Source: Escherichia coli (GTDB lineage: Bacteria > Pseudomonadota > Gammaproteobacteria > Enterobacterales > Enterobacteriaceae). Taken from it: DNA of 64,000 nucleotides. Where the stretch lies: the NCBI RefSeq assembly GCF_051903065.1, contig NZ_CP178438.1. One strand, given 5' to 3'. The notes under the pieces were generated by a model. It ran no database searches, was not told the origin of the DNA, and worked only from the letters and a program-made list of their open reading frames with translations. The translations under genes and the position numbers were made by a program. Shown piece after piece: positions 21,662-45,547 of the stretch; within the stretch, counting starts at the first letter, position 1; each line of letters begins with the position of its first letter.

Positions 21662-21800
21662 AGTTTGCTCCTGCCATAACGTGAAGAAGCAATGACCTGG
21701 TGGTCCGTGACTTCCCTACGCTGGCATTATCCAGATCAGGTGATACGGGTATTTCTCAGCCTTCACGCAGAAGGGCACCCCGAGTCGTTTGGTTGCGATG
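21662..21800 (-). promoter_or_regulatory. TPP riboswitch (thi-box) in thiM 5' leader
   Basis: Minus-strand reads ...cggggtgcccttctgcgtgaaggctgagaaatacccgtatcacctgatctggataatgccagcgtagggaa..., the canonical E. coli thiM aptamer, followed by the SD-sequestering segment ggcaggagcaaactATG. Confidence 0.88.
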
Positions 21801-22276: not shown

Positions 22277-23101
22277 ATGACCGAATTTACAACTCTTCTT
22301 CAGCAAGGAAACGCCTGGTTCTTCATCCCCAGCGCCATCTTACTTGGTGCGCTTCATGGCCTGGAACCAGGGCACTCAAAAACGATGATGGCGGCGTTTA
22401 TCATCGCCATCAAAGGCACCATTAAACAGGCGGTGATGCTCGGACTGGCAGCAACCATTTCACATACTGCGGTGGTCTGGTTGATTGCCTTTGGCGGGAT
22501 GGTGATCAGCAAGCGCTTTACTGCTCAATCAGCAGAACCGTGGCTCCAGCTGATTTCCGCAGTGATCATTATTAGCACCGCGTTCTGGATGTTCTGGCGT
22601 ACCTGGCGCGGCGAACGCAACTGGCTGGAGAATATGCACGAGCATGATCATGAGCATCATCACCACGATCACGAAGATCACCAAGACCATGGACATCATC
22701 ACCATCACGAACATGGCGAGTATCAGGATGCCCATGCACGAGCCCATGCCAATGACATTAAACGACGCTTTGATGGTAGAGAGGTCACCAACTGGCAAAT
22801 TTTGCTATTTGGCTTAACCGGTGGCCTTATCCCCTGCCCGGCAGCAATTACCGTGCTGTTGATTTGCATTCAGTTGAAAGCCCTGACACTGGGCGCAACA
22901 CTGGTCGTCAGTTTCAGCATTGGCCTGGCGTTAACGCTGGTCACCGTAGGCGTTGGCGCAGCAATCAGCGTTCAGCAGGTCGCAAAACGCTGGAGCGGAT
23001 TTAACACTCTCGCTAAACGCGCCCCCTATTTTTCCAGTCTGTTGATTGGCTTAGTCGGTGTGTATATGGGCGTACATGGATTCATGGGCATAATGCGATA
23101 A
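22277..23101 (+). CDS. rcnA: Ni/Co efflux permease RcnA
   Basis: 274 aa; His-rich cytoplasmic loop (HEHDHEHHHHDHEDHQDHGHHHHHEHG). Confidence 0.92.
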   Translation: MTEFTTLLQQGNAWFFIPSAILLGALHGLEPGHSKTMMAAFIIAIKGTIKQAVMLGLAATISHTAVVWLIAFGGMVISKRFTAQSAEPWLQLISAVIIISTAFWMFWRTWRGERNWLENMHEHDHEHHHHDHEDHQDHGHHHHHEHGEYQDAHARAHANDIKRRFDGREVTNWQILLFGLTGGLIPCPAAITVLLICIQLKALTLGATLVVSFSIGLALTLVTVGVGAAISVQQVAKRWSGFNTLAKRAPYFSSLLIGLVGVYMGVHGFMGIMR

Positions 23102-23319
23102 CTCAATCCTTTAGGCTTGCATGTTATCTTCAGCCCAGGATGATTCTTAAATCAGCTATTTCCGCTGACTCTCTGCTCGATAAGGATGCTTTTAGGGCAT
23201 CCTTTCATTTACACTTTTTACGAAATCATGGGATCACTAACAAAATATCGCTTGTCAGTTATATTGTATGGCATGAAAGATATGCGACTGATATTACAGA
23301 TCCCCAAAGTGGAGAATTT

Positions 23320-23658
23320 ATGACCATTAAATATAAGATGTTGCTGGGTGCGCTTTTGCTGGTTACCAGTGCCGCCTGGGCCGCACCAGCCACCGCGGGT
23401 TCGACCAATACCTCGGGAATTTCTAAGTATGAGTTAAGCAGTTTCATTGCTGACTTTAAGCATTTCAAACCAGGGGACACCGTACCAGAAATGTACCGTA
23501 CCGATGAGTACAACATTAAGCAGTGGCAGTTGCGTAACCTGCCCGCACCTGACGCCGGAACCCACTGGACCTATATGGGTGGCGCGTACGTGTTGATCAG
23601 CGACACCGACGGTAAAATCATTAAAGCCTACGACGGTGAGATTTTTTATCATCGCTAA
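23320..23658 (+). CDS. rcnB: Periplasmic Ni/Co homeostasis protein RcnB (YohN)
   Basis: 112 aa from MTIKYKMLLGALLLVTSAAWA (signal peptide); upstream part of ORF judged spurious. Confidence 0.85.
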   Translation: MTIKYKMLLGALLLVTSAAWAAPATAGSTNTSGISKYELSSFIADFKHFKPGDTVPEMYRTDEYNIKQWQLRNLPAPDAGTHWTYMGGAYVLISDTDGKIIKAYDGEIFYHR

Positions 23659-23690
23659 AAAAAGCCCCCTCATCATGAGGGGGAAATGCA
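23656..23690. terminator. Bidirectional rho-independent terminator between rcnB and yehA
   Basis: aaaaaaagccccctcatcatgagggggaaatg: GC hairpin flanked by A-run and T-rich stretch. Confidence 0.6.
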
Positions 23691-23739
23691 GACACCTTGT
23701 TATTTTTTATTATTAGCCACTTGCTCGTCTTGCTTGTTA

Positions 23740-24774
23740 TTAGTCGTATTTCACGTTGATTAGTGCGGTTGCCTCCAGTGCGCCAGATTTAACTTTGTTT
23801 GTATCGTAGACGTAGTAACTGGCTGTTATCGGAATTGAAACCGTTGTATCTGTAAGTTTTAACTTTGCCGCAATTTCTTTTAAATTTGTGTATCCTTTAC
23901 TGCTGTTAGTGATATTTAAAAGTGTGACTGGCGAACCATTACTTTCAAGAATAAATCCTACGCCATTATCTTCCGCACCTTTCAGTATTGTGTTGCTGTT
24001 GGTTAACAAGTCAGAACTTGATAAATACACCTGCATTTTCCGTGATGTTTGATTTTGTTGACCTAATAAATTTTTACAACGCAGAATAATATCCCCTTTT
24101 TTACTATTTACTGTTGCTTTGTTACCTGTGGCTGGTAATTGTGAAACGGGAATACTCTCTAAAGTAATTAATAAATCGTCCGGTTTGCAGGTTGTGGTTA
24201 TCGGGTTGTATGACAATGTCAGATTAAAGGAATAGACACCTGCATTTTGTGCCAATGCATTTCTGTAGCTATTTACACATGCATCCCATGACTTGCCACC
24301 TAATAAACACAGTAGAAATTGTACTGCGGCACTCCCGCGTGTCGATGATGAAGCACTGGATAATGTCGCAACACCATTAATCATCACTGAACCGCCGCCC
24401 CCCGCAGAAACATTCACTTTTGCATTACTGGCCGCAGGTGTCACCGTTACCGAATAACCACTGGTGAAACTGGTCTGATTATTTGACAACGTGATGTTAT
24501 TTTTATTGGTCCATTCAAAATGTAAATTTAATTTAATAGTATCGTTATAAAGTCCAACAATAATATCCGACGGGCTCATAGGGGTGATAGTATTTGTACT
24601 TACGCATGACGAATCATTAAAATTATGCTCATAGGTCGCCATTTGTGTTTGAGTAAGTGCAAAATCCCCCTGAACAACCAAATTGTGCTGAACAGATAAC
24701 TCACTATAACATGCTGCATAGCTCACTGGCATAACCATCATCATTAATATAAATAGCATTATGCGAATTTTCAT
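23740..24774 (-). CDS. yehA: Fimbrial adhesin-like protein YehA (chaperone-usher fimbriae)
   Basis: 344 aa, signal peptide, Ser/Thr/Asn-rich; last gene of yehDCBA. Confidence 0.8.
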   Translation of the reverse strand: MKIRIMLFILMMMVMPVSYAACYSELSVQHNLVVQGDFALTQTQMATYEHNFNDSSCVSTNTITPMSPSDIIVGLYNDTIKLNLHFEWTNKNNITLSNNQTSFTSGYSVTVTPAASNAKVNVSAGGGGSVMINGVATLSSASSSTRGSAAVQFLLCLLGGKSWDACVNSYRNALAQNAGVYSFNLTLSYNPITTTCKPDDLLITLESIPVSQLPATGNKATVNSKKGDIILRCKNLLGQQNQTSRKMQVYLSSSDLLTNSNTILKGAEDNGVGFILESNGSPVTLLNITNSSKGYTNLKEIAAKLKLTDTTVSIPITASYYVYDTNKVKSGALEATALINVKYD

Positions 24775-24789
24775 AGAACCACCTGACTA

Positions 24790-27285
24790 TTACTGGCAAA
24801 TATAATTTCTACTTTCATCAATCTCTTTACCGAAGGTGATTGTGCATGAAAGTCCTTGTTGCTTATTAATTGCCACATTAACCGATGGCGGTACTTCATT
24901 GGTGCGAATAAATAACTGACTTCCCTGGCCGACAACGCCAATATTATGACCGTGGATATCATTGACTTCATAACCAAACGTTAATGGTTGCCCATCCGCT
25001 CTTAACGCTTTTATAAACCAGGGCTTGCGCTGATCGGTATCAAAATTAACCAGTACAACCGCGCCGCGATAAGGGGCGGCAATTTTCCGGTTGCCACGTA
25101 ATTCTGCTTCGCTATCGCTTTGCGACACATCCAGCATCAGGTGATTTTCCCGATAAGGTGTCATTCCGTCGTATACCACCACTCCATTACGGTTTGTTGT
25201 GCGATATTTTTGCCCATTGACATAGGCATCTTTAATTCCTGGCGCATTCATCACAGCAAACGTTTCGGAAAGACGGTTCGCCAGATTAACGCCACCCGAC
25301 CAGGCGACAATGCCCCCTGAAACACTGGCTCCAGCCTGTCGATAAGTACTCGACTGACTATAACTGCCATTCACTGTTGCCACCGGCGCGTTCCAGGTTA
25401 AATTCGCTCCAGCTGTCGTTTCATTTCCCTGATGTTGATGACTCAGGTTGACACCATAATTGAACTGTTCCCGACTCCCTACTGTTCCTGATAATCCCGT
25501 ATTATTTGAGGCAAACCCCTGATCATCAAACGTCGTTGAGTTAGACATATATATTTGCCGACGAGGCGTCGAAACGTCATCACCCCAATCAAAGGGAATC
25601 GATATAAAAATATTAAAACGTTTCTCTTCATGATGATTCTCGTCATAAGCCTGGCTTGCCGCGAGGGTATAGCTTATCCGTCGCAGGTTGTTGGAATAAC
25701 TCAACTGATAATCCTTACTACTGCCGCTACGCCCCCAGTAATCTCGCCATAACGTACTTAATGACACAGAACCCCAACCTTCTGGCAATGACTGGCTCAT
25801 ATTGGCGGAAAAGCTATTTTTGCGACCAAAATCATTCTGGTAATAATCGGCAATGTCATAGACATCGTTTTCATTACGGCGATAATTATCTTTATTGTTT
25901 GCCCAAACGTGATCATTAAATGTCCGGTAATCACGCGACGAATAACGCCAGGCCGCCAGACCAAAACGCGTCGACGTTTGGCTCACAAATTTGTTGTAGG
26001 CAATTTGATAACTTTGCCCGTCAAACACATCGCCGTTGTCTTGTTTACTATGCGACTTCGTGGCATCGACGGAAATGGCACCAATGCGTGTATTCCAGCC
26101 AGTCCCCAAAGTGAACGCGTAATAATTATTCGCGACCATCGAGCCACCATACAGCGTCAATAAGTTATTAAAACCACACTGATAACCCGCCTGGACAAAA
26201 TCACTTTGTTTGCTCGCCCCTTCAATATGGCTACGACCCGCCGCAAAATCATATTTCGACACGCCGGGTTGCAGCATATTTGGCACGGCTGCATAAGGCA
26301 CCAGATAGGTGGTTACCGAACCGTCCGCCTCTTTCACGCTGACATCAAGATCTGCTCCACCACCGGCCAACTGCAAATCTGTAATCGCAAACGGGCCAGG
26401 AGGAACCTCTTTCTGATAAACCACAAAACCATTCTGTTCAATAGTTATCAGCGCGTTACTCTGAGCAATCCCCTGCACCCGTGGCGTAAAATTTTGTTTC
26501 GAGTTAGGCAACATCTGCATATCACGAAACAACCGCACACCTCTGAAGCGAACAGAATCAAAAATATCGCTTGATGTGTACATATCACCCACGCGAAGCG
26601 TGCCGAGAAGTTGGGCAAATCCACGTTCCAGATACAGGGTATTGCTTTTCCACACCCCTGGATTGTTATTTGTTTTACTGAAACTGGCATCAGAATGCAG
26701 TTGCCACCCCAGTAAATTTAACCCGCTGTTAAAACGTACATATGTACTCTTACTATTACCCGACGCTTTATAGTCACTGTAATACTGACTCACATAATAA
26801 GAGGTATAAAACGCATTAATACCCCGCTCCCAGTTTTCCGGTGGAACATAGCCACTTTCCAGTTCTTCCACCCAGGCCTGCGGGACACTGAAATCGAGAC
26901 GAAAGACCCCGATATCCCAGGTATAGCTCCCACCCTGAACAAGTTGCTCAAATGTTAAACATTGCTTTCCACTGGCGAAGTTATCGGTGTTAATGCCTAA
27001 CCGCTTGATAATTTCCCTTGATAAACAAGTTTCTTGCGGGTTGTCTTTAACAATGATCTCATATTTCCCGCGCCATTTCTTATTGACATAAATATCGATG
27101 TCATACTGCCCCGGTAAGGGTTGATTATCATCAAGACGAATATTTGCAACCTGCTGGTCTTTCATTCCACCTATCATAAAATGGGTATCAAAGGTTTCTT
27201 CAGCTGCATAAGCTTCAATGCCGAGCAATAACGCTACGATTGCTGATGCAAGTGGGGTCATTCTCAACATAGGCAGCTCCTGCAA
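24790..27285 (-). CDS. yehB: Fimbrial outer-membrane usher YehB
   Basis: ~830 aa usher-type protein; exact start codon not resolved. Confidence 0.85.
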   Translation of the reverse strand: MQELPMLRMTPLASAIVALLLGIEAYAAEETFDTHFMIGGMKDQQVANIRLDDNQPLPGQYDIDIYVNKKWRGKYEIIVKDNPQETCLSREIIKRLGINTDNFASGKQCLTFEQLVQGGSYTWDIGVFRLDFSVPQAWVEELESGYVPPENWERGINAFYTSYYVSQYYSDYKASGNSKSTYVRFNSGLNLLGWQLHSDASFSKTNNNPGVWKSNTLYLERGFAQLLGTLRVGDMYTSSDIFDSVRFRGVRLFRDMQMLPNSKQNFTPRVQGIAQSNALITIEQNGFVVYQKEVPPGPFAITDLQLAGGGADLDVSVKEADGSVTTYLVPYAAVPNMLQPGVSKYDFAAGRSHIEGASKQSDFVQAGYQCGFNNLLTLYGGSMVANNYYAFTLGTGWNTRIGAISVDATKSHSKQDNGDVFDGQSYQIAYNKFVSQTSTRFGLAAWRYSSRDYRTFNDHVWANNKDNYRRNENDVYDIADYYQNDFGRKNSFSANMSQSLPEGWGSVSLSTLWRDYWGRSGSSKDYQLSYSNNLRRISYTLAASQAYDENHHEEKRFNIFISIPFDWGDDVSTPRRQIYMSNSTTFDDQGFASNNTGLSGTVGSREQFNYGVNLSHQHQGNETTAGANLTWNAPVATVNGSYSQSSTYRQAGASVSGGIVAWSGGVNLANRLSETFAVMNAPGIKDAYVNGQKYRTTNRNGVVVYDGMTPYRENHLMLDVSQSDSEAELRGNRKIAAPYRGAVVLVNFDTDQRKPWFIKALRADGQPLTFGYEVNDIHGHNIGVVGQGSQLFIRTNEVPPSVNVAINKQQGLSCTITFGKEIDESRNYICQ

Positions 27286-27960
27286 TTAAATTTTGTCACT
27301 AATATAATTGCCGTGGTCATCGATAATGGTCAGATACCAGTTATTTGCATTATTACTTTTGACATTAACACTCTGACTTTCTAAGGGGGCAATCATAATA
27401 GTTTCATAATTGACTTTAACATTATTAGCTTTGACATCCGAAATCGTCACCCAATTAGCTGAGTCATTTTTTATCACCAATCCATTGCCACTGCGATTTA
27501 CCAGTAACTTTTTAAAGGTCGCTTTATTTACCGGAGCAATACCCGCCGGGCGGTAAAACAATTTGATTCTGTTTTGCATCGCAAACTTCAGTGCATTCTT
27601 ACCTTCTTGTTCTGGACTATTTGGTGGAATATCCAGAACATTCAGATAAAAAATGCTTTCTTTATTAGTGGGCAGTTTATTCGGCATAATTTTGATTTTT
27701 ACTTGCTGCCCGGAATTTGCCCCTATTTTTGCCACTGGTGGCGTTAACATGAAAGGAACCTGAATTTTTTCTGGTGGTAACGACGTATCGCCATCATCAA
27801 TCCACGCCTGCAGCAGCGAAGAACGGTTTCCCTGGTTCATCAACTGCACCATAACTTCTTTATTTTCTGCCGGGTAAATAATGCGCGTCCCGTAGATAAC
27901 AATTCCGGCATGTGCAGGAAGGACCATAGAAAAAATGAGTAAAGATAATAATCCTTTCAT
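27286..27960 (-). CDS. yehC: Periplasmic fimbrial chaperone YehC (PapD-like)
   Basis: 224 aa; signal peptide; adjacent to usher. Confidence 0.85.
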   Translation of the reverse strand: MKGLLSLLIFSMVLPAHAGIVIYGTRIIYPAENKEVMVQLMNQGNRSSLLQAWIDDGDTSLPPEKIQVPFMLTPPVAKIGANSGQQVKIKIMPNKLPTNKESIFYLNVLDIPPNSPEQEGKNALKFAMQNRIKLFYRPAGIAPVNKATFKKLLVNRSGNGLVIKNDSANWVTISDVKANNVKVNYETIMIAPLESQSVNVKSNNANNWYLTIIDDHGNYISDKI

Positions 27961-28040
27961 CTTAATGCCTCTTAAATTAAAAAGCCGCCATGGGGATAGC
28001 GGCCATGTTTATTACCTGGAGAAACTTGCAATTTTATTTA

Positions 28041-28583
28041 TTAATCCTGCGCCACACGCATAACCAGAGAAGATAACACATCACCTGATTGCACTGAGTT
28101 ATCTGTCAGTTTCAGGTATTTTGCTTTAAACGGAATAGCATATTGACCTTCCGCTGTTTTATAACTCTCAATATTAAAAGGTGCAGAAACATCCAGGACA
28201 TCGCTGTTATCACCTAAATAGAGATAGTAACCCACAGTATCGTTGCTACTGGCTATCGCCTTATCGTTACCAGTTATTTTATCGTTGGTAATCAACGAGA
28301 GTTTTACACCAGCAACTTCTTTCGGGCAGCTAATTTTTAACATGCTACTGGTTACACCGACTGCATCATCATAGGTAGAATATTTAGCTTTACCTTCAAA
28401 GACAGTGGTTGGTACAGTTGGCATATTAATACTTACTGAATCACCACCCGCTTCGAATTTACACGGAGATTCTGCAATATTTCCTTTAATGGTTAATGTT
28501 CCGGTATCAACGTCTGCAGCAAATACTCCAGCGCTCATAAAAAAAGAAGAAAAGACAGCGACAGCAATAATTGAACGTTTCAT
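28041..28583 (-). CDS. yehD: Major fimbrial subunit-like protein YehD
   Basis: 180 aa; signal peptide; AT-rich upstream region. Confidence 0.85.
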   Translation of the reverse strand: MKRSIIAVAVFSSFFMSAGVFAADVDTGTLTIKGNIAESPCKFEAGGDSVSINMPTVPTTVFEGKAKYSTYDDAVGVTSSMLKISCPKEVAGVKLSLITNDKITGNDKAIASSNDTVGYYLYLGDNSDVLDVSAPFNIESYKTAEGQYAIPFKAKYLKLTDNSVQSGDVLSSLVMRVAQD

Positions 28584-28875
28584 AATATGTTCCTTAATAA
28601 AATTTATTTTTGGTTGTTAAGAGTCTGTATCTCTTGGAAACAAATTTCTCACATCAAAAAAGTTGCCGCAATGTAAACATATTGTTTTATTGATTTAAAA
28701 CAAATTAACCATTGCAATATAAATACAACAAATACTTAAGAGTATTAAATATTTATCGTATCTATTAATTAATGTAGATTTATGTAAATGGTATTGTTGA
28801 TATCAATAAAAAAGCCGAAATCATTTATATAAATGATTTCGGCTTTCTAAATGCAATTAAAATCAGGTTGCCAAA

Positions 28876-29157
28876 TTAATCGTAGCGATTTAACACGATT
28901 CGACGTTTGCTATCACTACCTGCAACAACCACTTCTGTCGTTACACCTTTGACGGGCGAAGAAACCTGATGACGGGTATCGACATTATACGTTAACTGAC
29001 CACAATGCTGTTGAGGTTGACTATTAACCATAGCCATACTGCATGTTGGGGGACTGATCCTGCCATTAATCGTTAATGTGGCAGTCTCTGAAGAGAACGC
29101 GGGAGAAGCCAATCCATAGGCAAGAAAAATAATTCCTGACAGCCAATACTTATTCAT
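28876..29157 (-). CDS. yehE: Small secreted protein YehE
   Basis: 93 aa with signal peptide (MNKYWLSGIIFLAYGLASPAFS). Confidence 0.6.
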   Translation of the reverse strand: MNKYWLSGIIFLAYGLASPAFSSETATLTINGRISPPTCSMAMVNSQPQQHCGQLTYNVDTRHQVSSPVKGVTTEVVVAGSDSKRRIVLNRYD

Positions 29158-29345
29158 TGAACGTTATCCCTGTAGTAAAGGTTATGCCTGGATAGAATGA
29201 GTGCATAACAAACTATAGCTGTACATCCACTACACAGCACGAAGGATGATAATGAAGCATTGCCTGTACGATCAATCGACTTTGTAGAGTTTCGGACGAA
29301 GGTCCGCAGAATATTCGCAGTATTAAATAAGTGTTCATTAATGCG

Positions 29346-29388
29346 GCAAAAACAAATACACCGCATCAATGTAACATCTCTGCGGTGT
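29346..29388 (-). terminator. Rho-independent terminator downstream of mrp
   Basis: Minus-strand hairpin acaccgca-N15-tgcggtgt followed by atttgttttt. Confidence 0.5.
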
Positions 29389-29418
29389 ATGAAGAATAAC
29401 CAGAATGGTTAATAGGCG

Positions 29419-30528
29419 TTAGACCGCGCGGAAGGAAATCTCGCCTGGAATGACTTCACCCTGCCAGTAGAGCTGAGCTGCAACGCGGTCAGCCAGCTGG
29501 CGGTAGATAGCGGTAAATTCGCTCTCCGGACGGCTGATAACCGTTGGCGTGCCTTTATCGAGATCCTCACGTAAGGAAATATGTAACGGCATCTGCCCCA
29601 GCAGTTGTGTGTGGTATTTCTCTGCCAGTTTCTCTGCACCACCGGTACCAAAAATCGGTTCATGGTGACCACAGTTACTGCAAATATGCACACTCATGTT
29701 CTCGACAATACCGAGCACCGGAACCTCGACTTTCTCGAACATCACAATGCCTTTTTTCGCATCGATCAACGCGATGTCCTGCGGGGTGGTGACCACGACT
29801 GCACCAGTTACTGGAATGTTTTGCGCCAGCGTCAATTGAATGTCACCGGTGCCTGGCGGCATATCAAGCACCAGATAGTCGAGATCCGGCCACAAGGTTT
29901 CCTGCAACATCTGCATTAACGCCTTGCTCGCCATCGGTCCACGCCACACCATCGCATTGTCGTCAGTGACCAGATAACCAATTGAATTGGTTGCCAGGCC
30001 ATGAGACATAATCGGTGCCATATGGGTACCGTCCGGCGAAGTTGGACGCTGATTTTCTGCGCCCAGCATGGTGGGAATTGATGGGCCGTAGATATCGGCG
30101 TCCAGAATGCCGACTTTCGCCCCTTCCGCCGCCAGTGCCAGCGCCAGGTTTACCGCCGTGGAGGATTTACCCACGCCGCCTTTACCGGAACTGACCGCAA
30201 TGATGTTCTTCACGCCATTAATACCCGGCTGATTCTTCACGCGTTTTAAGGTGGCGATATTGTGCGACAGTTTCCAGTCGATAGCTTTCGCCCCGGTGAT
30301 ACGCAGCAGTTCGGCGCTACATTGCTCTTTTAACTCTTCAAACGCGCTATGCCAGACGAATGGCATAACCAGTTCCACATGCAACGTGTCGTCCATCCAG
30401 GCGACATGGTGCAACGCTTTCAGCGTGGTGAGGTTATGCTTCAGGGTTGGGTGCTGAAAATTGGCCAGTGTCCCGGCGACCATTGCGCGCAAGGCTTCTG
30501 GTGATTTGGCCTGGGATTGTTCGTTCAT
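29419..30528 (-). CDS. mrp: Fe-S cluster carrier ATPase Mrp/ApbC
   Basis: 369 aa from MNEQSQAKSPE; deviant Walker A (GKGGVGKSS) and CxxC (CSNCGH). Confidence 0.92.
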   Translation of the reverse strand: MNEQSQAKSPEALRAMVAGTLANFQHPTLKHNLTTLKALHHVAWMDDTLHVELVMPFVWHSAFEELKEQCSAELLRITGAKAIDWKLSHNIATLKRVKNQPGINGVKNIIAVSSGKGGVGKSSTAVNLALALAAEGAKVGILDADIYGPSIPTMLGAENQRPTSPDGTHMAPIMSHGLATNSIGYLVTDDNAMVWRGPMASKALMQMLQETLWPDLDYLVLDMPPGTGDIQLTLAQNIPVTGAVVVTTPQDIALIDAKKGIVMFEKVEVPVLGIVENMSVHICSNCGHHEPIFGTGGAEKLAEKYHTQLLGQMPLHISLREDLDKGTPTVISRPESEFTAIYRQLADRVAAQLYWQGEVIPGEISFRAV

Positions 30529-30659
30529 CCCGACTCCTTTTTTGTATAGATAAACCATCAGCTGATAGTTTACCTGAAGAATATAGAGAAGTACTTACTT
30601 AACATTTTCCCATTTGGTACTATCTAACCCCTTTTCACTATTAAGAAGTAATGCCTACT

Positions 30660-32693
30660 ATGACTCAAGTCGCGAAGAAAATTCTGGTGACGTGCGCACT
30701 GCCGTACGCTAACGGCTCAATCCACCTCGGCCATATGCTGGAGCACATCCAGGCTGATGTCTGGGTCCGTTACCAGCGAATGCGCGGCCACGAGGTCAAC
30801 TTCATCTGCGCCGACGATGCCCACGGTACACCGATCATGCTGAAAGCTCAGCAGCTTGGTATCACCCCGGAGCAGATGATTGGCGAAATGAGTCAGGAGC
30901 ATCAGACTGATTTCGCAGGCTTTAACATCAGCTATGACAACTATCACTCGACGCACAGCGAAGAGAACCGCCAGTTGTCTGAGCTTATCTATACTCGCCT
31001 GAAAGAAAACGGTTTTATTAAAAACCGCACCATCTCTCAGCTGTACGATCCGGAAAAAGGCATGTTCCTGCCGGACCGTTTTGTGAAAGGCACCTGCCCG
31101 AAATGTAAATCCCCGGATCAATACGGCGATAACTGCGAAGTCTGCGGCGCGACCTACAGCCCGACTGAACTGATCGAGCCGAAATCGGTGGTTTCTGGCG
31201 CTACCCCGGTAATGCGTGATTCTGAACACTTCTTCTTTGATCTGCCCTCTTTCAGCGAAATGTTGCAGGCATGGACCCGCAGCGGTGCGTTGCAGGAGCA
31301 GGTGGCAAATAAAATGCAGGAGTGGTTTGAATCCGGTCTGCAACAGTGGGATATCTCCCGCGACGCGCCGTACTTCGGTTTTGAAATTCCGAACGCGCCG
31401 GGTAAATATTTCTACGTCTGGCTGGATGCGCCGATTGGCTATATGGGTTCTTTCAAGAATCTGTGCGACAAGCGCGGCGACAGCGTAAGCTTCGATGAAT
31501 ACTGGAAGAAAGACTCCACCGCCGAGCTGTACCACTTCATCGGTAAAGATATTGTTTACTTCCACAGTCTGTTCTGGCCTGCAATGCTGGAAGGCAGCAA
31601 CTTCCGCAAGCCGACCAACTTGTTTGTTCACGGCTATGTGACAGTGAACGGTGCGAAGATGTCCAAGTCTCGCGGCACCTTTATTAAAGCCAGCACCTGG
31701 CTGAATCATTTTGACGCCGACAGCCTGCGTTACTACTACACTGCGAAACTCTCTTCGCGCATTGATGATATCGATCTCAACCTGGAAGATTTCGTTCAGC
31801 GCGTGAATGCCGATATCGTTAACAAAGTGGTTAACCTGGCCTCTCGTAATGCGGGCTTTATCAACAAGCGTTTTGACGGCGTGCTGGCAAGCGAACTGGC
31901 TGACCCGCAGTTGTACAAAACCTTCACTGATGCCGCTGAAGTGATTGGTGAAGCGTGGGAAAGCCGCGAATTTGGTAAAGCAGTGCGCGAAATCATGGCG
32001 CTGGCTGATCTGGCTAACCGCTATGTCGATGAACAGGCTCCGTGGGTGGTGGCGAAACAGGAAGGCCGCGATGCCGACCTGCAGGCAATTTGCTCAATGG
32101 GCATAAACCTGTTCCGCGTGCTGATGACTTACCTGAAGCCGGTACTGCCGAAACTGACCGAGCGCGCAGAAGCATTCCTTAATACGGAACTGACCTGGGA
32201 TGGTATCCAGCAACCGCTGCTGGGCCATAAAGTGAATCCGTTCAAGGCGCTGTATAACCGCATAGATATGAAGCAGGTTGAAGCACTGGTGGAAGCGTCT
32301 AAAGAAGAAGTGAAAGCAGCTGCCGCGCCGGTAACTGGCCCGCTGGCAGATGATCCGATTCAGGAAACCATCACCTTTGACGACTTCGCTAAAGTTGACC
32401 TGCGCGTGGCGCTGATTGAAAACGCAGAGTTTGTTGAAGGTTCTGACAAACTGCTGCGCCTGACGCTGGATCTCGGCGGTGAAAAACGCAATGTCTTCTC
32501 TGGCATTCGTTCTGCTTACCCGGATCCGCAGGTACTGATTGGTCGTCACACCATTATGGTGGCTAACCTGGCACCACGTAAAATGCGCTTCGGTATCTCT
32601 GAAGGCATGGTGATGGCTGCCGGTCCTGGCGGGAAAGATATTTTCCTGCTAAGCCCGGATGCCGGTGCTAAACCGGGTCATCAGGTGAAATAA
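30660..32693 (+). CDS. metG: Methionyl-tRNA synthetase
   Basis: 677 aa from [14 protein letters not shown] motif (GSIHLGH), KMSKS, zinc knuckle (CPKC...CEVC). Confidence 0.95.
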
Positions 32694-32833: not shown

Positions 32834-35800
32834 ATGAAGAGTTATATCTATCAGGACGAAAAATCACATAAATTCTGGGCGGTGGAGCAGCAGGGAAACG
32901 AGTTGCATATCAGCTGGGGAAAAGTTGGTACCCAAGGGCAAAGCCAGGTAAAAAATTTTGCTGATGTTGCAGCAGCGGAAAAAGCGAAACTGAAGCTTAT
33001 CGCGGAGAAAACGAAAAAAGGCTATGTGGAAAATGCTTCAGCAAACGTGCATATCCCCCCCATTACCAAAGCCACTCCTGAAGTTGAAACTTCCCCTGAG
33101 AGTAAAAACCAACGCCCCTGGCTGGCTGATGATGCGGTCATTCGGCTAACTGACGATATTAATCGATTTGCTTTTCCTCATCGCTCTCGCCCCAGAGAGA
33201 TCAATTATCTGCACAAAGATGGTCAAATATGGCAGCTCATCGCGAATAACACCAGAGCATATGATCCCGCCAACAATTACCGTTCTTATCCAGAAAACTG
33301 GCAGCAGGCTTTTGCTGAGTTACAAATGCGAGTTCAGGGTAATCAACAGACAGGGAGTGTGCAATCTGATGCAGCATTGCTCTGGAGTTTCTGGAACTCT
33401 TACTCTGCAGATGAACTGGTCGATGACTTAGTCATTCGCTGTGGTCTGGAAAGTGCCGTTGAAATTGCCCTTCTCGCTCTTCAACTTAGATATAAACCAG
33501 TAAAAGCCGACGTCACCACCATCATTCCCCCTGATCTCAAAGCAGAATCGCTACCGAACTGGCATCAACGTCTATGTCATCATCTTTCACTCGCTTCAGA
33601 AGATGAGTGGCAACGCTGTGTAGATAAGGTACTCGCGGCTATTCCCTCGCTATCCCCAGCACGGCAACCTTTTGCGGCGTTACTGATCCCTGAACGCCCG
33701 GATATCGCCAATGCTATGGCGCTACATTATGCAGATCAAAACGTTCCGGCGATGACCTGGTTAAGTATGATGGTAAGCGATGATGTTGCCCTGGCCATCC
33801 AGGAAAAATATGGTTTCCCACCGCTATATAATGATTTCCGCAAATATCTGGCTACGTTACTGGCAAATAATGGAATGCGTGGTGTAAGCCGGATTCTTCT
33901 CAAGCTACCTGTCGACTATCCCGTAAAATACACGGACCTTTTCACTCACATACACGCCAATGCTGAAAATCTTGTCAAATGGCTATGGAAAACGAATCAC
34001 CCGGATGCGATTCAAATTCTGATCCTCGGTGTAAATGGCAAGAAAAAGCACCTGGAATACTTAAGCAAAGCCTGCCAAAAACATCCCGCTGCGGCTATTG
34101 CCGCTTATGCTACTTTGCTGGCAATACATGAAAATAATGAGTGGCGTAAAGCGCTTGTCAAACTGATTACCGCCACGCCAGAGTTAGTATGCGAGGTCAT
34201 TCCCTGGGTTAATGCTAAGGCGGCAGGCATCTTATCTGAATGTCGTCCGCTGCCAATAGCTGAAGAATGTGAATATGCCACTGTGGATATGTTGCCGGAG
34301 CTGCTGGTCGCTCCACCGTGGGTAATAAATAAGAAAAAGAATGTCATACCCGTATTTGATTTACCGGTACTTCCCATTCCTGCCGTCACGGATATCACAC
34401 CAGGAATTACAGAGTTAATCAGTCATACTGACATATCCAGATTCAGTGAAATCGCGCAATATCAGGCATCACAGCAAACCTTATTTACCGACCTGCCACT
34501 AATTGAAAAAGAAAGCTGGGAGACATCTTTCATTCCTTTTACACCAGAACAACAAATTCTTTGGCAATTAGGTTTTAATGAATGGCTGCATTGCGAAAAT
34601 GACTTACATGAAAAAAAATATATACCGCAAAGCGCTGTTGATGCCTTGTTGCGCTTTGATTTTTCAGCACTAAAAGCTGAGTTTGCGAAATATCACAACA
34701 ATGCCAACAAAAGCTGGAATCTATCTGCGCTTTGTTACTTACCGGGACAACAGGCGATCTCATTTCTCAACCAAATAATCATTGAGGAGCGATATTCAGG
34801 TGAGAAAGAGATTCTGGCGGTTTTTGGTAGTACGGCCATTCCTGCGTTTATGACCTGCTTGCAACGAGATCATCAACGCCTGTGGATATTCACCCTTTTT
34901 ATTGGAGCCAGTGAACTAGCCTTACCAATGGCGCAGCGGTTACAGAAAAAAATAGCTTACAAGGATGCCGTTAATTGGCTGGCAAATAACCCGCGCCATG
35001 CCGCCGCCGGGCTACTGCCTTTGGCGCTGGGCAAACCGTGCCAAAATCGGGAATATGCCCGCCAGGCACTCCTCCTGCTAGTGAAATTAAACCAGCGAGA
35101 AACGATTGAGGAAATCGCCCAAGGATATAATCAACCTGATGTTTTAGCTGCGCTGGCAACATTATTTGATAGCGACCCACTGGAAGAATATCCTGCAAAA
35201 ATCGCCCCACTGCCCGGCTTTTATCAGTTCCCCTTATGGCGCAGACCTCGGCTTAAAAGTAACAACCTGCCTCTGCCAGATGACGCTATGCGCCACCTCG
35301 GCACAATGTTGAGCTTTCCACGCGACATTACCTCCTACGCTGGGCTGGCGATCATCAAAGAGACCTTCACCCGCGAATCACTGGCTGACTTTGGCTGGGA
35401 TCTCTACACGGCATGGACAGAAGCAGGCGCACCCGCAAAAGAGAACTGGGCATTTACCTCGCTGGGGATTCTAGGCAATGACGACACCGCGCGTAAACTA
35501 ACCCCGCTCATCCGCGCCTGGCCGGGTGAATCCCAGCATAAACGCGCGGTTTACGGGCTGGATGTGTTAGCCAGTATCGGTAGCGACATTGCGCTTATGT
35601 TGCTTAATGGCATTGCGCAAAAGATTAAATTCGTTGCATTACAGGAATATGCCAGCGACAGAATCAATATGGTCGCCGAAAATCGCGGACTGACAATGGC
35701 CGAACTGGAAGATCGCCTGGCACCGGATTTAGGGCTTGATAGCAGTGGCTCGCTAATATACTGGATTTCGGCCCCCGCAAATTCACCGTTGGTTTTGACG

Positions 35801-36636
35801 AAACCTTAAAACCTGTAGTGTGCGATGCAAACGGCAAAGTCCTGAAAGATTTACCTAAGACAAACCAGAGCGATGATAAAACACTGGCAACTGACGCAGT
35901 TAATCTCTTCAAACAGTTGAAAAAAGATGTTCGTGCTATCGCCAGCCAGCAAATTACCCGTCTGGAACAGGCTATGTGCCAGCGCAGACGCTGGACGGCA
36001 GAGCAGTTCCGCCTGTTTCTGGTGGAGCATCCGCTGGTACGTCACTTAACCCGACGGCTGTTATGGGGGGTTTATAACGATGAAAACGCCCTTATCATCT
36101 GTTTTCGCGTGGCAGAAGACAGCACTTACAGCGATGCGCAGGATGAGTTATTCACGCTGCCAGCAGGAAACATCGGTATACCGCATGTGCTGGAAATCCC
36201 CCCTGAATCCGCCGCTGCATTCAGGCAAATTTACGTTGATTACGAACTGCTTCCCCCTTTCCAACAGCTCGAACGTGGTAGTTACCACCTTGCTGATAAC
36301 GAACGTAATGTCCATGAATTGTCACGCTGGAACGGACGTCTCTGCCAGGCCGGACGCATTGTCGGGCTGGAACGCAGAGGCTGGCAACGTCTGGAAGAAA
36401 GCGGCAGCGTCTATGCGATGCGCAAATCTACCCCTTATGGTGCTCTCGAACTTGAAACAGAACCTTTTTCATTAATTTATGGCGAAACGGGGTATAGCGA
36501 CCTGCTGCCTGTCGAAAGCGTAAAAATCACCGCCCCTTATGATCGCTATGGTAAACAATCCTCACCCACTTTCTCCGTGCTCGACGACATCACCGCCAGC
36601 GAGCTGATTAACGACATTGAATCACTGTTTGATTAA
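32834..36636 (+). pseudogene. Giant WGR-domain / DUF4132-family protein (molR/yehH-like), disrupted by a frameshift near 35757
   Basis: ORFs 32834..35809 (991 aa) and 35818..36636 (272 aa) are in different frames; joined they are colinear with the intact 1249-aa paralog downstream; break is at ctaatatactggat. Confidence 0.75.
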
Positions 36637-44100: not shown

Positions 44101-44418
44101 ATGATCGTGCAAAAAGAGCTGGTTGCTATTTACGATTATGAGGTCCCTGTACCTGAAGATCCGTTTTCCTTCAGACTTGAGATCCATAAATGCTCTGAAT
44201 TATTTACAGGTTCCGTCTATCGACGGGAGCGATTCCGGCTACATCCAACATTTCATCAACGTGATCGAGAAGATGCTGACCCGCTAATAAATGATGCGTT
44301 GATTTATATAAGAGATGAGTGTATTGATGAGCGGAAATTACGAGGTAAATCACCTGAAACTGTAATAGCAATTTTTAATCGTGAACTACAGAATATATTC
44401 AACCAAGAAATAGAATAA
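44101..44418 (+). CDS. yehK: Small hypothetical protein YehK
   Basis: 105-aa ORF, AT-rich, immediately downstream of yehI. Confidence 0.7.
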   Translation: MIVQKELVAIYDYEVPVPEDPFSFRLEIHKCSELFTGSVYRRERFRLHPTFHQRDREDADPLINDALIYIRDECIDERKLRGKSPETVIAIFNRELQNIFNQEIE

Positions 44419-44856: not shown

Positions 44857-44936
44857 TTGGTACGAAATGTTGCACAATCAGCAAGTTAGCGTCACTGTAG
44901 TAAATAAAAGAACCTGCCTCACCAGCAGGTTTTTTT
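44857..44936 (+). ncRNA. Orz-type antitoxin sRNA (copy 1)
   Basis: Starts after the tataat box, ends at hairpin acctgcctcaccagcaggt + T7; 5' region guugguacgaaauguugc pairs over 18 nt (one G.U) with the zor 5' UTR (plus 44693-44710); ends approximate. Confidence 0.65.
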
Positions 44937-45464: not shown

Positions 45465-45547
45465 TTGGAACACGATGTTGCACAGGCTGTGGTGTTAGGC
45501 CTGAAAATAGTAAATAAAAGAACCTGCCTCACCAGCAGGTTTTTTTA
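45465..45547 (+). ncRNA. Orz-type antitoxin sRNA (copy 2)
   Basis: guuggaacacgauguugcac complementary (one mismatch) to the copy-2 zor 5' UTR; terminator acctgcctcaccagcaggt + T-run; ends approximate. Confidence 0.65.

Follow-up and report, generated by a model that had tools for sequence, protein, structure and literature searches.

What does the low GC content of a fimbrial gene cluster tell us about its history and its regulation? The question is raised by positions 23,740 to 29,157 of a 64,000-nucleotide stretch of Escherichia coli DNA (contig NZ_CP178438.1, assembly GCF_051903065.1), which as a whole is called the window in the following. An initial annotation had described this part as the yehDCBA operon with yehE, an AT-rich chaperone-usher locus typical of horizontally acquired DNA that is silenced by H-NS. 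We are highly confident that it represents the Yeh cluster (Stc in Salmonella), a gamma-4 chaperone-usher system that lies at its normal chromosomal site, is silenced by H-NS and is ancient. The locus, its silencing by H-NS, the conditional gamma-4 pilus and even the spacer upstream of yehD are already published. Our analysis adds the maintenance of AT-richness, a covarying terminator after yehE, a yehD-proximal region that is conserved above the pilin gene, and a pilin-like N-terminus of YehE.

Identity of the yeh cluster

The borders of the cluster are exact: read on the minus strand, it extends from the yehE start codon, whose first base is position 29,157, to the yehA stop codon, whose last base is position 23,740. 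In between, five minus-strand open reading frames (ORFs; Table 1) all start with ATG and have no internal stop codon. The names yehA to yehE come from the RefSeq annotation of megablast matches, with positions 23,000 to 30,600 (7.6 kb) as query against 5426 complete E. coli genomes, 5233 of which contain a place covering at least 80% of the query. By the same annotation, rcnR, rcnA and rcnB precede the cluster in the window, and apbC (mrp) and metG come after it. The cluster in the window contains no mobility genes. E. coli K-12 MG1655 carries the same genes (yehDCBA, b2111-b2108, and yehE, b2112) colinearly, in the same order, on the same strand, with the same neighbours and the same 292-bp AT-rich spacer. 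The nucleotide identity to K-12 is 97-98%, and the differences are only allelic, apart from a longer annotation of yehC. The individual yeh genes (97.2-98.4%) do not differ in this respect from rcnA (98.2%), apbC (96.9%) and metG (98.1%). Colinearity with K-12 and the expected Pfam and NCBIfam domains bear out the initial gene assignment. In K-12, yehC is annotated with 239 amino acids (aa), 15 codons longer than here and with its ATG inside the hairpin between yehD and yehC; a 1-nt indel in the yehD-yehC spacer (27,961-28,040) closes this longer frame in the window, and the 224-aa start (PGAP) is the one conserved across loci.

The four genes yehD, yehC, yehB and yehA encode, in this order, a Fimbrial-domain pilin, a chaperone, an intact usher and a two-domain tip adhesin, and thus constitute a chaperone-usher operon. 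YehD matches Pfam Fimbrial (PF00419); its signal peptide is kept across genera, while the mature part is highly variable (32-98% identity). YehC contains PapD_N (PF00345, E = 4e-41) and PapD_C (PF02753, E = 2e-8), has the StcB chaperone model as best NCBIfam match, and counts CupB2, YadV, PapD and FimC among its solved relatives. YehB is matched by PapC_N (PF13954), Usher (PF00577, 651 bits) and PapC_C (PF13953) and reaches 1747 bits against NCBIfam NF011763 (cut-off 933); FimD is its closest solved structure (E = 6e-110), and PapC is also among the solved relatives. YehA scores 684 bits against NCBIfam NF011788; its signal peptide is followed by a receptor-binding domain (about residues 21-193) and then by a pilin domain (184-344, PF00419). 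Its residues 21-193 match PDB 9N4G/H/I (E = 3e-109), the receptor-binding domain of the 'YehD protein', that is, the Yeh adhesin under the reversed naming of UTI89, where the operon is called yehABCD and YehD is the adhesin. The YehB/StcC-type usher and the location between rcnB and yehE-apbC-metG define the locus as Yeh/Stc. The assignment to gamma-4 rests on PMC7098969 and PMC12778044, while the usher was placed here by its NCBIfam match and by synteny; the gene functions rest on the homology found here together with published experiments.

Like type 1 (fim) and P (pap) pili, the Yeh system combines a PapD/FimC-like chaperone, a FimD/PapC-like usher, donor-strand pilins and a two-domain adhesin. 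Unlike them, it is a minimal four-gene operon without adaptor or minor pilins, without an invertible switch and without dedicated regulator genes, and as a gamma-4 system it assembles thin, flexible fibres when expressed (PMC7098969). The adhesin also differs, as it carries an alpha-helical flap and its receptor-binding domain binds pectin, not mannose or Gal-Gal; deletion of yeh lowers gut colonisation by a fim-negative UTI89 strain (PMC12778044).

AT-richness, H-NS silencing and the age of the locus

The initial annotation had called both the coding and the upstream DNA markedly AT-rich, and the computed values confirm this. With 41.3% GC compared with 50.1% for the window, positions 23,740 to 29,157 form its most AT-rich 5.4-kb stretch; only 0.4% of all 5418-bp segments are as low, all of them overlapping the cluster, and the lowest segment clear of it has 46.9%. 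The genes yehA (38.3%), yehC (38.8%), yehD (39.2%), yehE (43.6%) and, as the least deviant, the usher gene yehB (45.4%) lie below rcnA, rcnB, apbC and metG (50-54%), and the steps in composition fall at the cluster borders rcnB/yehA and yehE/apbC. GC content at third codon positions (GC3) is 0.30-0.44 in yeh genes versus 0.57-0.62 in these four neighbours, and it also differs from that of all non-yeh genes of the window (Mann-Whitney p = 0.0013). Pooled synonymous codon use of yeh genes deviates from that of the other window genes (chi-square 190, 41 d.f., p = 4e-21), and a leave-one-out codon score is marginally lower (p = 0.03); classical rare codons are not especially enriched in comparison to the rest of the window. 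The check on composition and codon use that was suggested with the initial annotation thus separates yeh clearly from its flanks. The spacer between yehD and yehE (28,584-28,875) is the lowest 292-bp stretch of the window (lowest 0.06%), but with 76% A+T the earlier description "nearly all A/T" was overstated.

In K-12, yehDCBA is described as a cryptic chaperone-usher operon and as a member of the H-NS regulon in two genome-wide data sets; it is repressed by H-NS, and its expression rises 3.6-fold on over-production of SlyA (PMC5797941, citing Korea et al. 2010, Kahramanoglou and Oshima for the H-NS regulon and repression). The yehD/yehE spacer is H-NS-bound promoter island 2190229_357, one of 78 listed for MG1655 (Panyukov and Ozoline 2013, PMC3661553). 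Over-expression of bolA induces yehD and yehC (PMC4337573), and Low et al. 2006 (cited in PMC7098969) found higher activity of the yeh promoter at 28 °C and under static growth. The suggestion of an H-NS-silenced, conditionally expressed operon is therefore borne out by published work on K-12 and O157 (PMC5797941, PMC3661553, PMC7098969, PMC4337573). Binding and derepression were published for K-12, and we infer both for the strain studied here, whose spacer is 98% identical (292 bp, 6 mismatches). Elsewhere in the window, the small genes yegR (4170-4487) and yehK (44,101-44,418) are also AT-rich (38.7% and 38.4% GC, GC3 of 0.29 and 0.28), and the densest cluster of promoter-like sites lies at about position 4361, inside yegR; both genes are probably further targets of the H-NS type.

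For the history of the cluster we scanned one genome per species with patterns derived from the YehE alignment. Escherichia spp., Citrobacter spp. and S. enterica subsp. arizonae contributed 13 loci in total; as R[RQK]IVLNRYD was obligatory in these patterns, S. enterica subsp. enterica and more distant genera were probably missed. Wherever the fetched stretch reaches, the order is metG/apbC-yehE-yehD-yehC-yehB-(yehA)/rcnB in all three genera. Protein identity to the window is 93-100% for ApbC and MetG, 65-96% for YehB, 58-96% for YehC, 46-97% for YehE, 32-98% for YehD and from below 30% to 93% for YehA. The Salmonella stcABCD and Citrobacter orthologues occupy the same site in the same order with a yehE-like gene upstream (PMC3559732). 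They share an AT-rich spacer (274-280 bp, 25-31% GC), the terminator after yehE and the invariant promoter-proximal blocks described below. Identity is 65-82% for their YehB and 58-76% for their YehC. Their structural subunits diverge strongly, with YehD 32-39% identical in most loci (64% in locus L015) and YehA below 30% or undetectable, and GC3 of the usher gene is partly raised (0.48-0.55). In agreement with this, Yeh was counted among the core-associated fimbrial types, being intact in 92% of the strains of a panel, and was judged ancestral because of the same locus in Salmonella (Stc) and Citrobacter (PMC3559732). We read these data as indicating that acquisition of the cluster, if it occurred, preceded the split of Escherichia, Citrobacter and Salmonella, and that inheritance has been vertical since then.

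Two patterns among the surface proteins were seen in the same loci. In YehA of Escherichia sp. MOD1-EC7003 (L008, 8854-9453) and E1V33 (L011, 14,817-15,416) only the pilin domain aligns (residues 148-344, 45-47% identity) and the receptor-binding domain has been replaced, a sign that adhesins of different specificity may occupy this locus. YehD alleles cross genera, as those of Citrobacter sp. Res13 (L015, 10,563-11,102; 64%) and of the relocated operon in locus L004 (6975-7517; 60%) are of the E. coli type and those of other Citrobacter and of Salmonella are 32-39% identical; this pattern reflects either ancient allele classes or exchange of pilin genes.

AT-richness is a constant feature of these loci. 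The operon has 41.5-44.6% GC, the spacer 24-31% and apbC/metG 53-56% in 13 of 13 loci, and GC3 of yehD is 0.26-0.34 compared with 0.585-0.66 for apbC in the six loci checked. Since dS of apbC between genera is 1.0-1.35, synonymous sites are saturated, and the AT-richness of yeh has been maintained in all three genera despite this saturation. Within Escherichia, dN/dS is 0.07-0.11 for yehD, 0.02-0.07 for yehC, 0.05-0.06 for yehB and 0.13-0.23 for yehE. These genes are under purifying selection, which argues that the 'cryptic' genes are in use. Preserved H-NS control would most simply explain why the low GC was maintained, as opposed to an unameliorated remnant of foreign DNA.

Three other origins of the low GC were weighed. 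The initial annotation implied a recently acquired island whose AT-richness stems from a low-GC donor and has not yet ameliorated. The sharp edges of low GC and GC3 at the cluster borders would fit such an island, as would the foreign label given to the locus by the composition predictors IslandViewer, GIST, Nakamura and Lawrence (table in PMC3661553), and the extreme divergence of YehD and YehA alleles that are partly common to several genera. However, an element whose site and gene order are shared by 13 genomes from three genera, which is core-associated and ancestral by published judgement (PMC3559732), which 5233 of 5426 complete E. coli genomes contain with at least 80% coverage of the query, and which is as similar to K-12 as rcnA, apbC and metG, does not behave like a newcomer. 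Moreover, GC3 is low everywhere although synonymous sites are saturated between genera. Acquisition as a recent event is thus already largely refuted, and we regard it as very unlikely.

Even less probable to us is that the locus is a decaying, functionless remnant, AT-rich by relaxed selection and GC-to-AT mutation bias, for which silence would be irrelevant. Decay would account for losses that do occur: O55:H7 strains have an internal stop in yehB, which is absent from yehB of the window, and IS903B and IS1A interrupt yehB in 23CRST027 and 23CRST031 (human faeces, Ecuador), the only genomes that are otherwise 100% identical to the window here. For 23CRST027 this identity covers the mapped annotated genes of the window and the 7.6-kb query, and yehB seems to be a recurrent target of inactivation. 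Truncated YehE variants are also common in E. coli and numerous in databases, and deleting each of 12 fimbrial operons, yeh included, is reported to have improved growth of MG1655 (PMC8174762). Against this, all five ORFs are intact in the window, dN/dS is only 0.02-0.23 within Escherichia, conservation of the regulatory region is strong, expression leads to assembled pili (PMC7098969), and the adhesin binds pectin and yeh contributes to gut colonisation in a fim-negative background (PMC12778044). We give an equally slight chance to the view that low GC simply follows from the residues in which fimbrial proteins are rich (Asn, Tyr, Lys, Ile, Thr) and has no regulatory meaning. GC at first and second codon positions of yehA, yehC and yehD is indeed somewhat low, and AAT and TAT codons are 2.4- to 3.2-fold commoner than in other window genes. 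The largest deficit is nevertheless at GC3, and the most AT-rich part is the non-coding spacer. In addition, the relocated homologous operon L004 encodes YehD, YehC and YehB of 60-73% identity at GC3 of 0.50-0.65, which shows that such proteins can be encoded without low GC; GC3 and L004 together already largely refute this explanation.

Transcription units and the control region of yehD

The intrinsic terminator that follows yehE (Table 1) folds with about -23 kcal/mol (z = -5.05), and 0 of 200 shuffles were as stable. On 14 loci, 91.7% of the alignment cells are paired, and compensatory changes affect 5 pairs (27 cells), a covariation that none of 500 shuffles attained; in slid controls 39-53% of cells are paired. 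The inner stem ATCATT...AATGAT is sequence-invariant across three genera, while the mid-stem covaries. A generic scan for terminators and promoters gave counts at or below shuffle expectation and missed this terminator with its A/U-rich stem; the region was therefore folded separately. Since a conserved, covarying terminator follows yehE, we predict that yehE is its own transcription unit, apart from yehDCBA, and do not retain it within the yehDCBA transcript as initially annotated.

The opposing view, in which yehE opens a yehEDCBA operon of five genes, draws on the position of yehE, which is adjacent and on the same strand with a pairing kept in all syntenic loci, and on a study of O157 in which ECs2914-2918 including yehE were cloned as one unit and pili were obtained (PMC7098969); besides, terminators can leak. 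On the other hand, a perfect 18-bp stem with a U6 run directly after yehE (z = -5), with compensatory changes in three genera, is hard to reconcile with it, and so is a 292-bp spacer before yehD that has its own conserved promoter-proximal blocks. The yehE homologue in L004 diverges in orientation from the operon, and the literature handles the operon as yehDCBA (PMC5797941). We consider a common transcript of all five genes unlikely.

The spacer between apbC and yehE presumably holds the yehE promoter, with TTGATC-N18-TATCAT at 29,275-29,246 as candidate. Stable hairpins follow apbC (z = -3.4); two alternatives compete there, and the apbC terminator was left uncalled. Intercistronic hairpins after the major pilin gene are a feature of the pap and fim operons. 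Between yehD and yehC, a G+C-rich hairpin occurs in 14 of 14 loci, with differing sequence and an often weak U run; it is probably a 3' stabiliser or a partial terminator that raises pilin over the assembly proteins. The 81-bp spacer between the convergent genes yehA and rcnB, which contains the hairpin at the end of yehDCBA, is 100% identical to K-12.

The yehE-yehD spacer is 274-293 bp long with 24-31% GC in 13 of 13 syntenic loci. It contains five promoter-like sites in 292 bp, which corresponds to 17 per kb compared with 3.8 per kb in the window (4.5-fold). By a simple hexamer score, not the PlatProm score by which islands are defined, this density is reached by only 3.3% of segments, and it fits the label 'promoter island'. 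Promoter islands were linked to foreign genes (PMC3661553), whereas the yeh genes are ancient and vertically inherited. Furthermore, half of the yeh island is conserved in sequence across genera, which speaks against a mere pile of degenerate promoter-like sites.

Within the spacer, the terminator is followed by about 70 bp of AT-rich, unconserved DNA and then by about 150 bp of conserved DNA proximal to yehD. The identity of these proximal 150 bp between genera is 75-78%, compared with 53-62% for the distal spacer, 54-56% for yehD, 59-65% for yehE, 64-72% for yehC and 67-76% for yehB; the region is thus conserved above yehD, yehE and yehC and equally to yehB. In the 14-locus alignment the blocks TATATTGC, TTGTTTTAAATCAATAAAACAA, TTTACATTGCG and TTATTAAGGAA (Shine-Dalgarno) are invariant, and the cores TTAAATCAATAAA and TTCACATTG are also present in the more distant loci L004 and L007. 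Block TTGTTTTAAATCAATAAAACAA varies in three genera only at one T/C position and one spacer base. It contains a perfect 8+8 inverted repeat, TTGTTTTA-N6-TAAAACAA, which is not significant as a repeat alone, since 14% of shuffles hold one. We regard positions 28,682 to 28,703 as a candidate operator, a proposal whose weight comes from near-invariance across three genera and not from the repeat itself. Readings of the invariant blocks by eye as FNR-, PhoP-, OmpR- or IHF-like sites gave no good consensus match. The hexamers and the spacer length of the candidate sigma-70 promoter of yehD are invariant in the same alignment, and this promoter would weakly predict a transcription start near position 28,663. 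About 35 nt upstream of the yehD ATG a small leader hairpin was seen by eye; locus L014 has an apparently compensated AGGG/CCCT variant of it, also read by eye.

We propose that yehD, yehC, yehB and yehA form one operon that would be read from the AT-rich spacer upstream of yehD, with the stem-loop after yehD probably keeping pilin mRNA in excess over that of the assembly genes, and a hairpin shared with rcnB ending the transcript. The spacer, together with the AT-rich coding DNA, would serve as a platform for binding of H-NS, which would hold the operon nearly silent in laboratory culture. Expression would then need counter-silencing or particular conditions, such as SlyA, BolA, lower temperature, static growth or the gut. 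According to this proposal, yehE is a neighbouring gene that is transcribed independently and has its own terminator, and the cluster as a whole predates the split of the three genera, has been transmitted vertically under purifying selection, and has remained AT-rich in every lineage.

Several observations weigh against this proposal. In the generic sigma-70 scan of positions 23,000 to 30,700 the number of sites did not exceed that in shuffles, and no good promoter of yehD emerged; the candidate promoter scores only 8 of 12 in the simple scan. The H-NS motif TCGATAAATT is not enriched, with 81 matches (at most 2 mismatches) in the window compared with 67 ± 8 expected; three matches with 2 mismatches, and none better, lie in or at the edge of the yehE-yehD spacer. 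As there was no excess over shuffles, this consensus was dropped as support for H-NS control. Activity of the yeh promoter was seen in plain static LB (Low et al. 2006, as cited in PMC7098969), and 'cryptic' is thus only relative. Silencing in the strain studied here is extrapolated from K-12 and O157. Local mutational bias could contribute to the maintained AT-richness, and so could repeated allelic replacement of yehD and yehA, since their alleles are very divergent and cross genus borders. Finally, because yehB is inactivated in the closest relatives, the operon is dispensable in some lineages.

Table 1. Genes and putative regulatory features of the yeh cluster, with positions in the window
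Feature	Position	Strand	Description
yehA	23740..24774	-	344 aa tip adhesin, intact ORF; YehD in UTI89 naming
yehB	24790..27270	-	826 aa outer-membrane usher, intact
yehC	27286..27960	-	224 aa PapD-like periplasmic chaperone
yehD	28041..28583	-	180 aa major pilin; YehA in UTI89 naming
yehE	28876..29157	-	93 aa small secreted DUF2574 protein; mature part about 70 aa
yehDCBA terminator (predicted)	23665..23683		G+C-rich hairpin and T run in the 81-bp yehA/rcnB convergent spacer; scan and fold
yehD-yehC stem-loop	27983..28004	-	G+C-rich, short U run; terminator scan and fold
yehE-yehD intergenic spacer	28584..28875		292 bp, 23.6% GC; published promoter island
Proximal control region and 5' leader of yehD	28584..28733	-	14-locus alignment, invariant blocks
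Small leader hairpin	28619..28635	-	AAGAG-N7-CTCTT
Candidate sigma-70 promoter of yehD	28670..28699	-	-35 TTTAAA 28699-28694, N18, -10 TACATT 28675-28670
Near-invariant 22-nt block TTGTTTTAAATCAATAAAACAA	28682..28703		perfect 8+8 inverted repeat
yehE intrinsic terminator	28809..28848	-	perfect 18-bp stem, 4-nt loop, U6 run
apbC-yehE spacer	29158..29418	-	40% GC

YehE, other loci of the window and implications

YehE matches PF10836 (DUF2574) over residues 1-93 of 93 with 174.5 bits (cut-off 27.5). The family is small, as a profile search of 1.84 billion representative proteins gave 32 proteins at E ≤ 0.001, and is characterised by a signal peptide, two conserved Cys residues and an invariant penultimate Tyr (Tyr92). 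Tyr92 lies in a strongly conserved C-terminal motif, IVLNRYD in E. coli, which resembles the C-terminus of YehA (LINVKYD). An hhalign comparison with the YehD family gave a probability of 96.5% for residues 1-43 only, that is, for the signal peptide and a donor-strand-like TLTINGxI..C segment. A BLASTP comparison of YehE with YehD was not significant (E = 2.3), YehE has no match to Pfam Fimbrial, and its AlphaFold models are weak (pLDDT 49 and 69). In locus L004 the YehE homologue adjoins a yeh-like operon in divergent orientation; L007 is syntenic with apbC upstream and hence offers no independent context. In a 6.2-Mb genome, an orphan YehE-like gene (L023/L024, 8001-8276; 41% identity, tblastn) was located immediately downstream of an rRNA operon, and chaperone-usher genes are absent from the 8 kb around it. 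This orphan copy weakens the idea that DUF2574 is an obligate companion of yeh-type operons.

Judged from its sequence, YehE is a real, selected, pilin-related small secreted protein, and it may be a miniature periplasmic protein derived from a pilin. As a hypothesis, it could act in Yeh biogenesis, for instance by binding the chaperone as a terminator or anchor, or by regulating assembly. The 150 bp upstream of yehD, in turn, may be the operator of a dedicated counter-silencing regulator. Neither the mini-pilin role nor the yehD-proximal operator is addressed in the literature searched, and to these speculative proposals we assign a low though not negligible likelihood.

Apart from the yeh cluster, the window contains a copy of IS1397 (IS3 family) at 12,405-13,753, between gatY and fbaB. 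The gene gatZ (region 9985-11,248) is annotated as frameshifted in a sequence-identical relative, and only an ORF of 334 aa (10,244-11,248) remains in the window; this strain may have impaired galactitol use. Matches that exceed the Rfam gathering score comprise the small RNA CyaR (3923-4008, plus strand), a TPP riboswitch (21,696-21,792, minus strand) upstream of thiMD, and two OrzO-P antitoxin RNAs (44,863-44,936 and 45,471-45,546, both plus strand) between yehK and yehL, which represent zor-orz type I toxin-antitoxin loci. The first of three tandem DUF4132 genes (molR/yehF-yehH region), at about 32,834-36,636, is, according to the annotation of relatives only, frameshifted in a near-identical relative and interrupted by an internal stop in O55:H7.

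Beyond correct annotation the significance of these results is slight, and the additions are of specialist interest. An intact yeh copy is worth recording, since close relatives of the strain lost the usher. The locus also calls for caution with composition-based calls: judged by GC, GC3 and island predictors yeh would pass as foreign DNA, although it is older than the split of the genera. Since its site has not changed since before the genera diverged, we propose that AT-richness here does not date an acquisition but is a regulatory property that has been maintained. Both YehE and the conserved blocks near the yehD promoter are small leads on how cryptic pili may be switched on.

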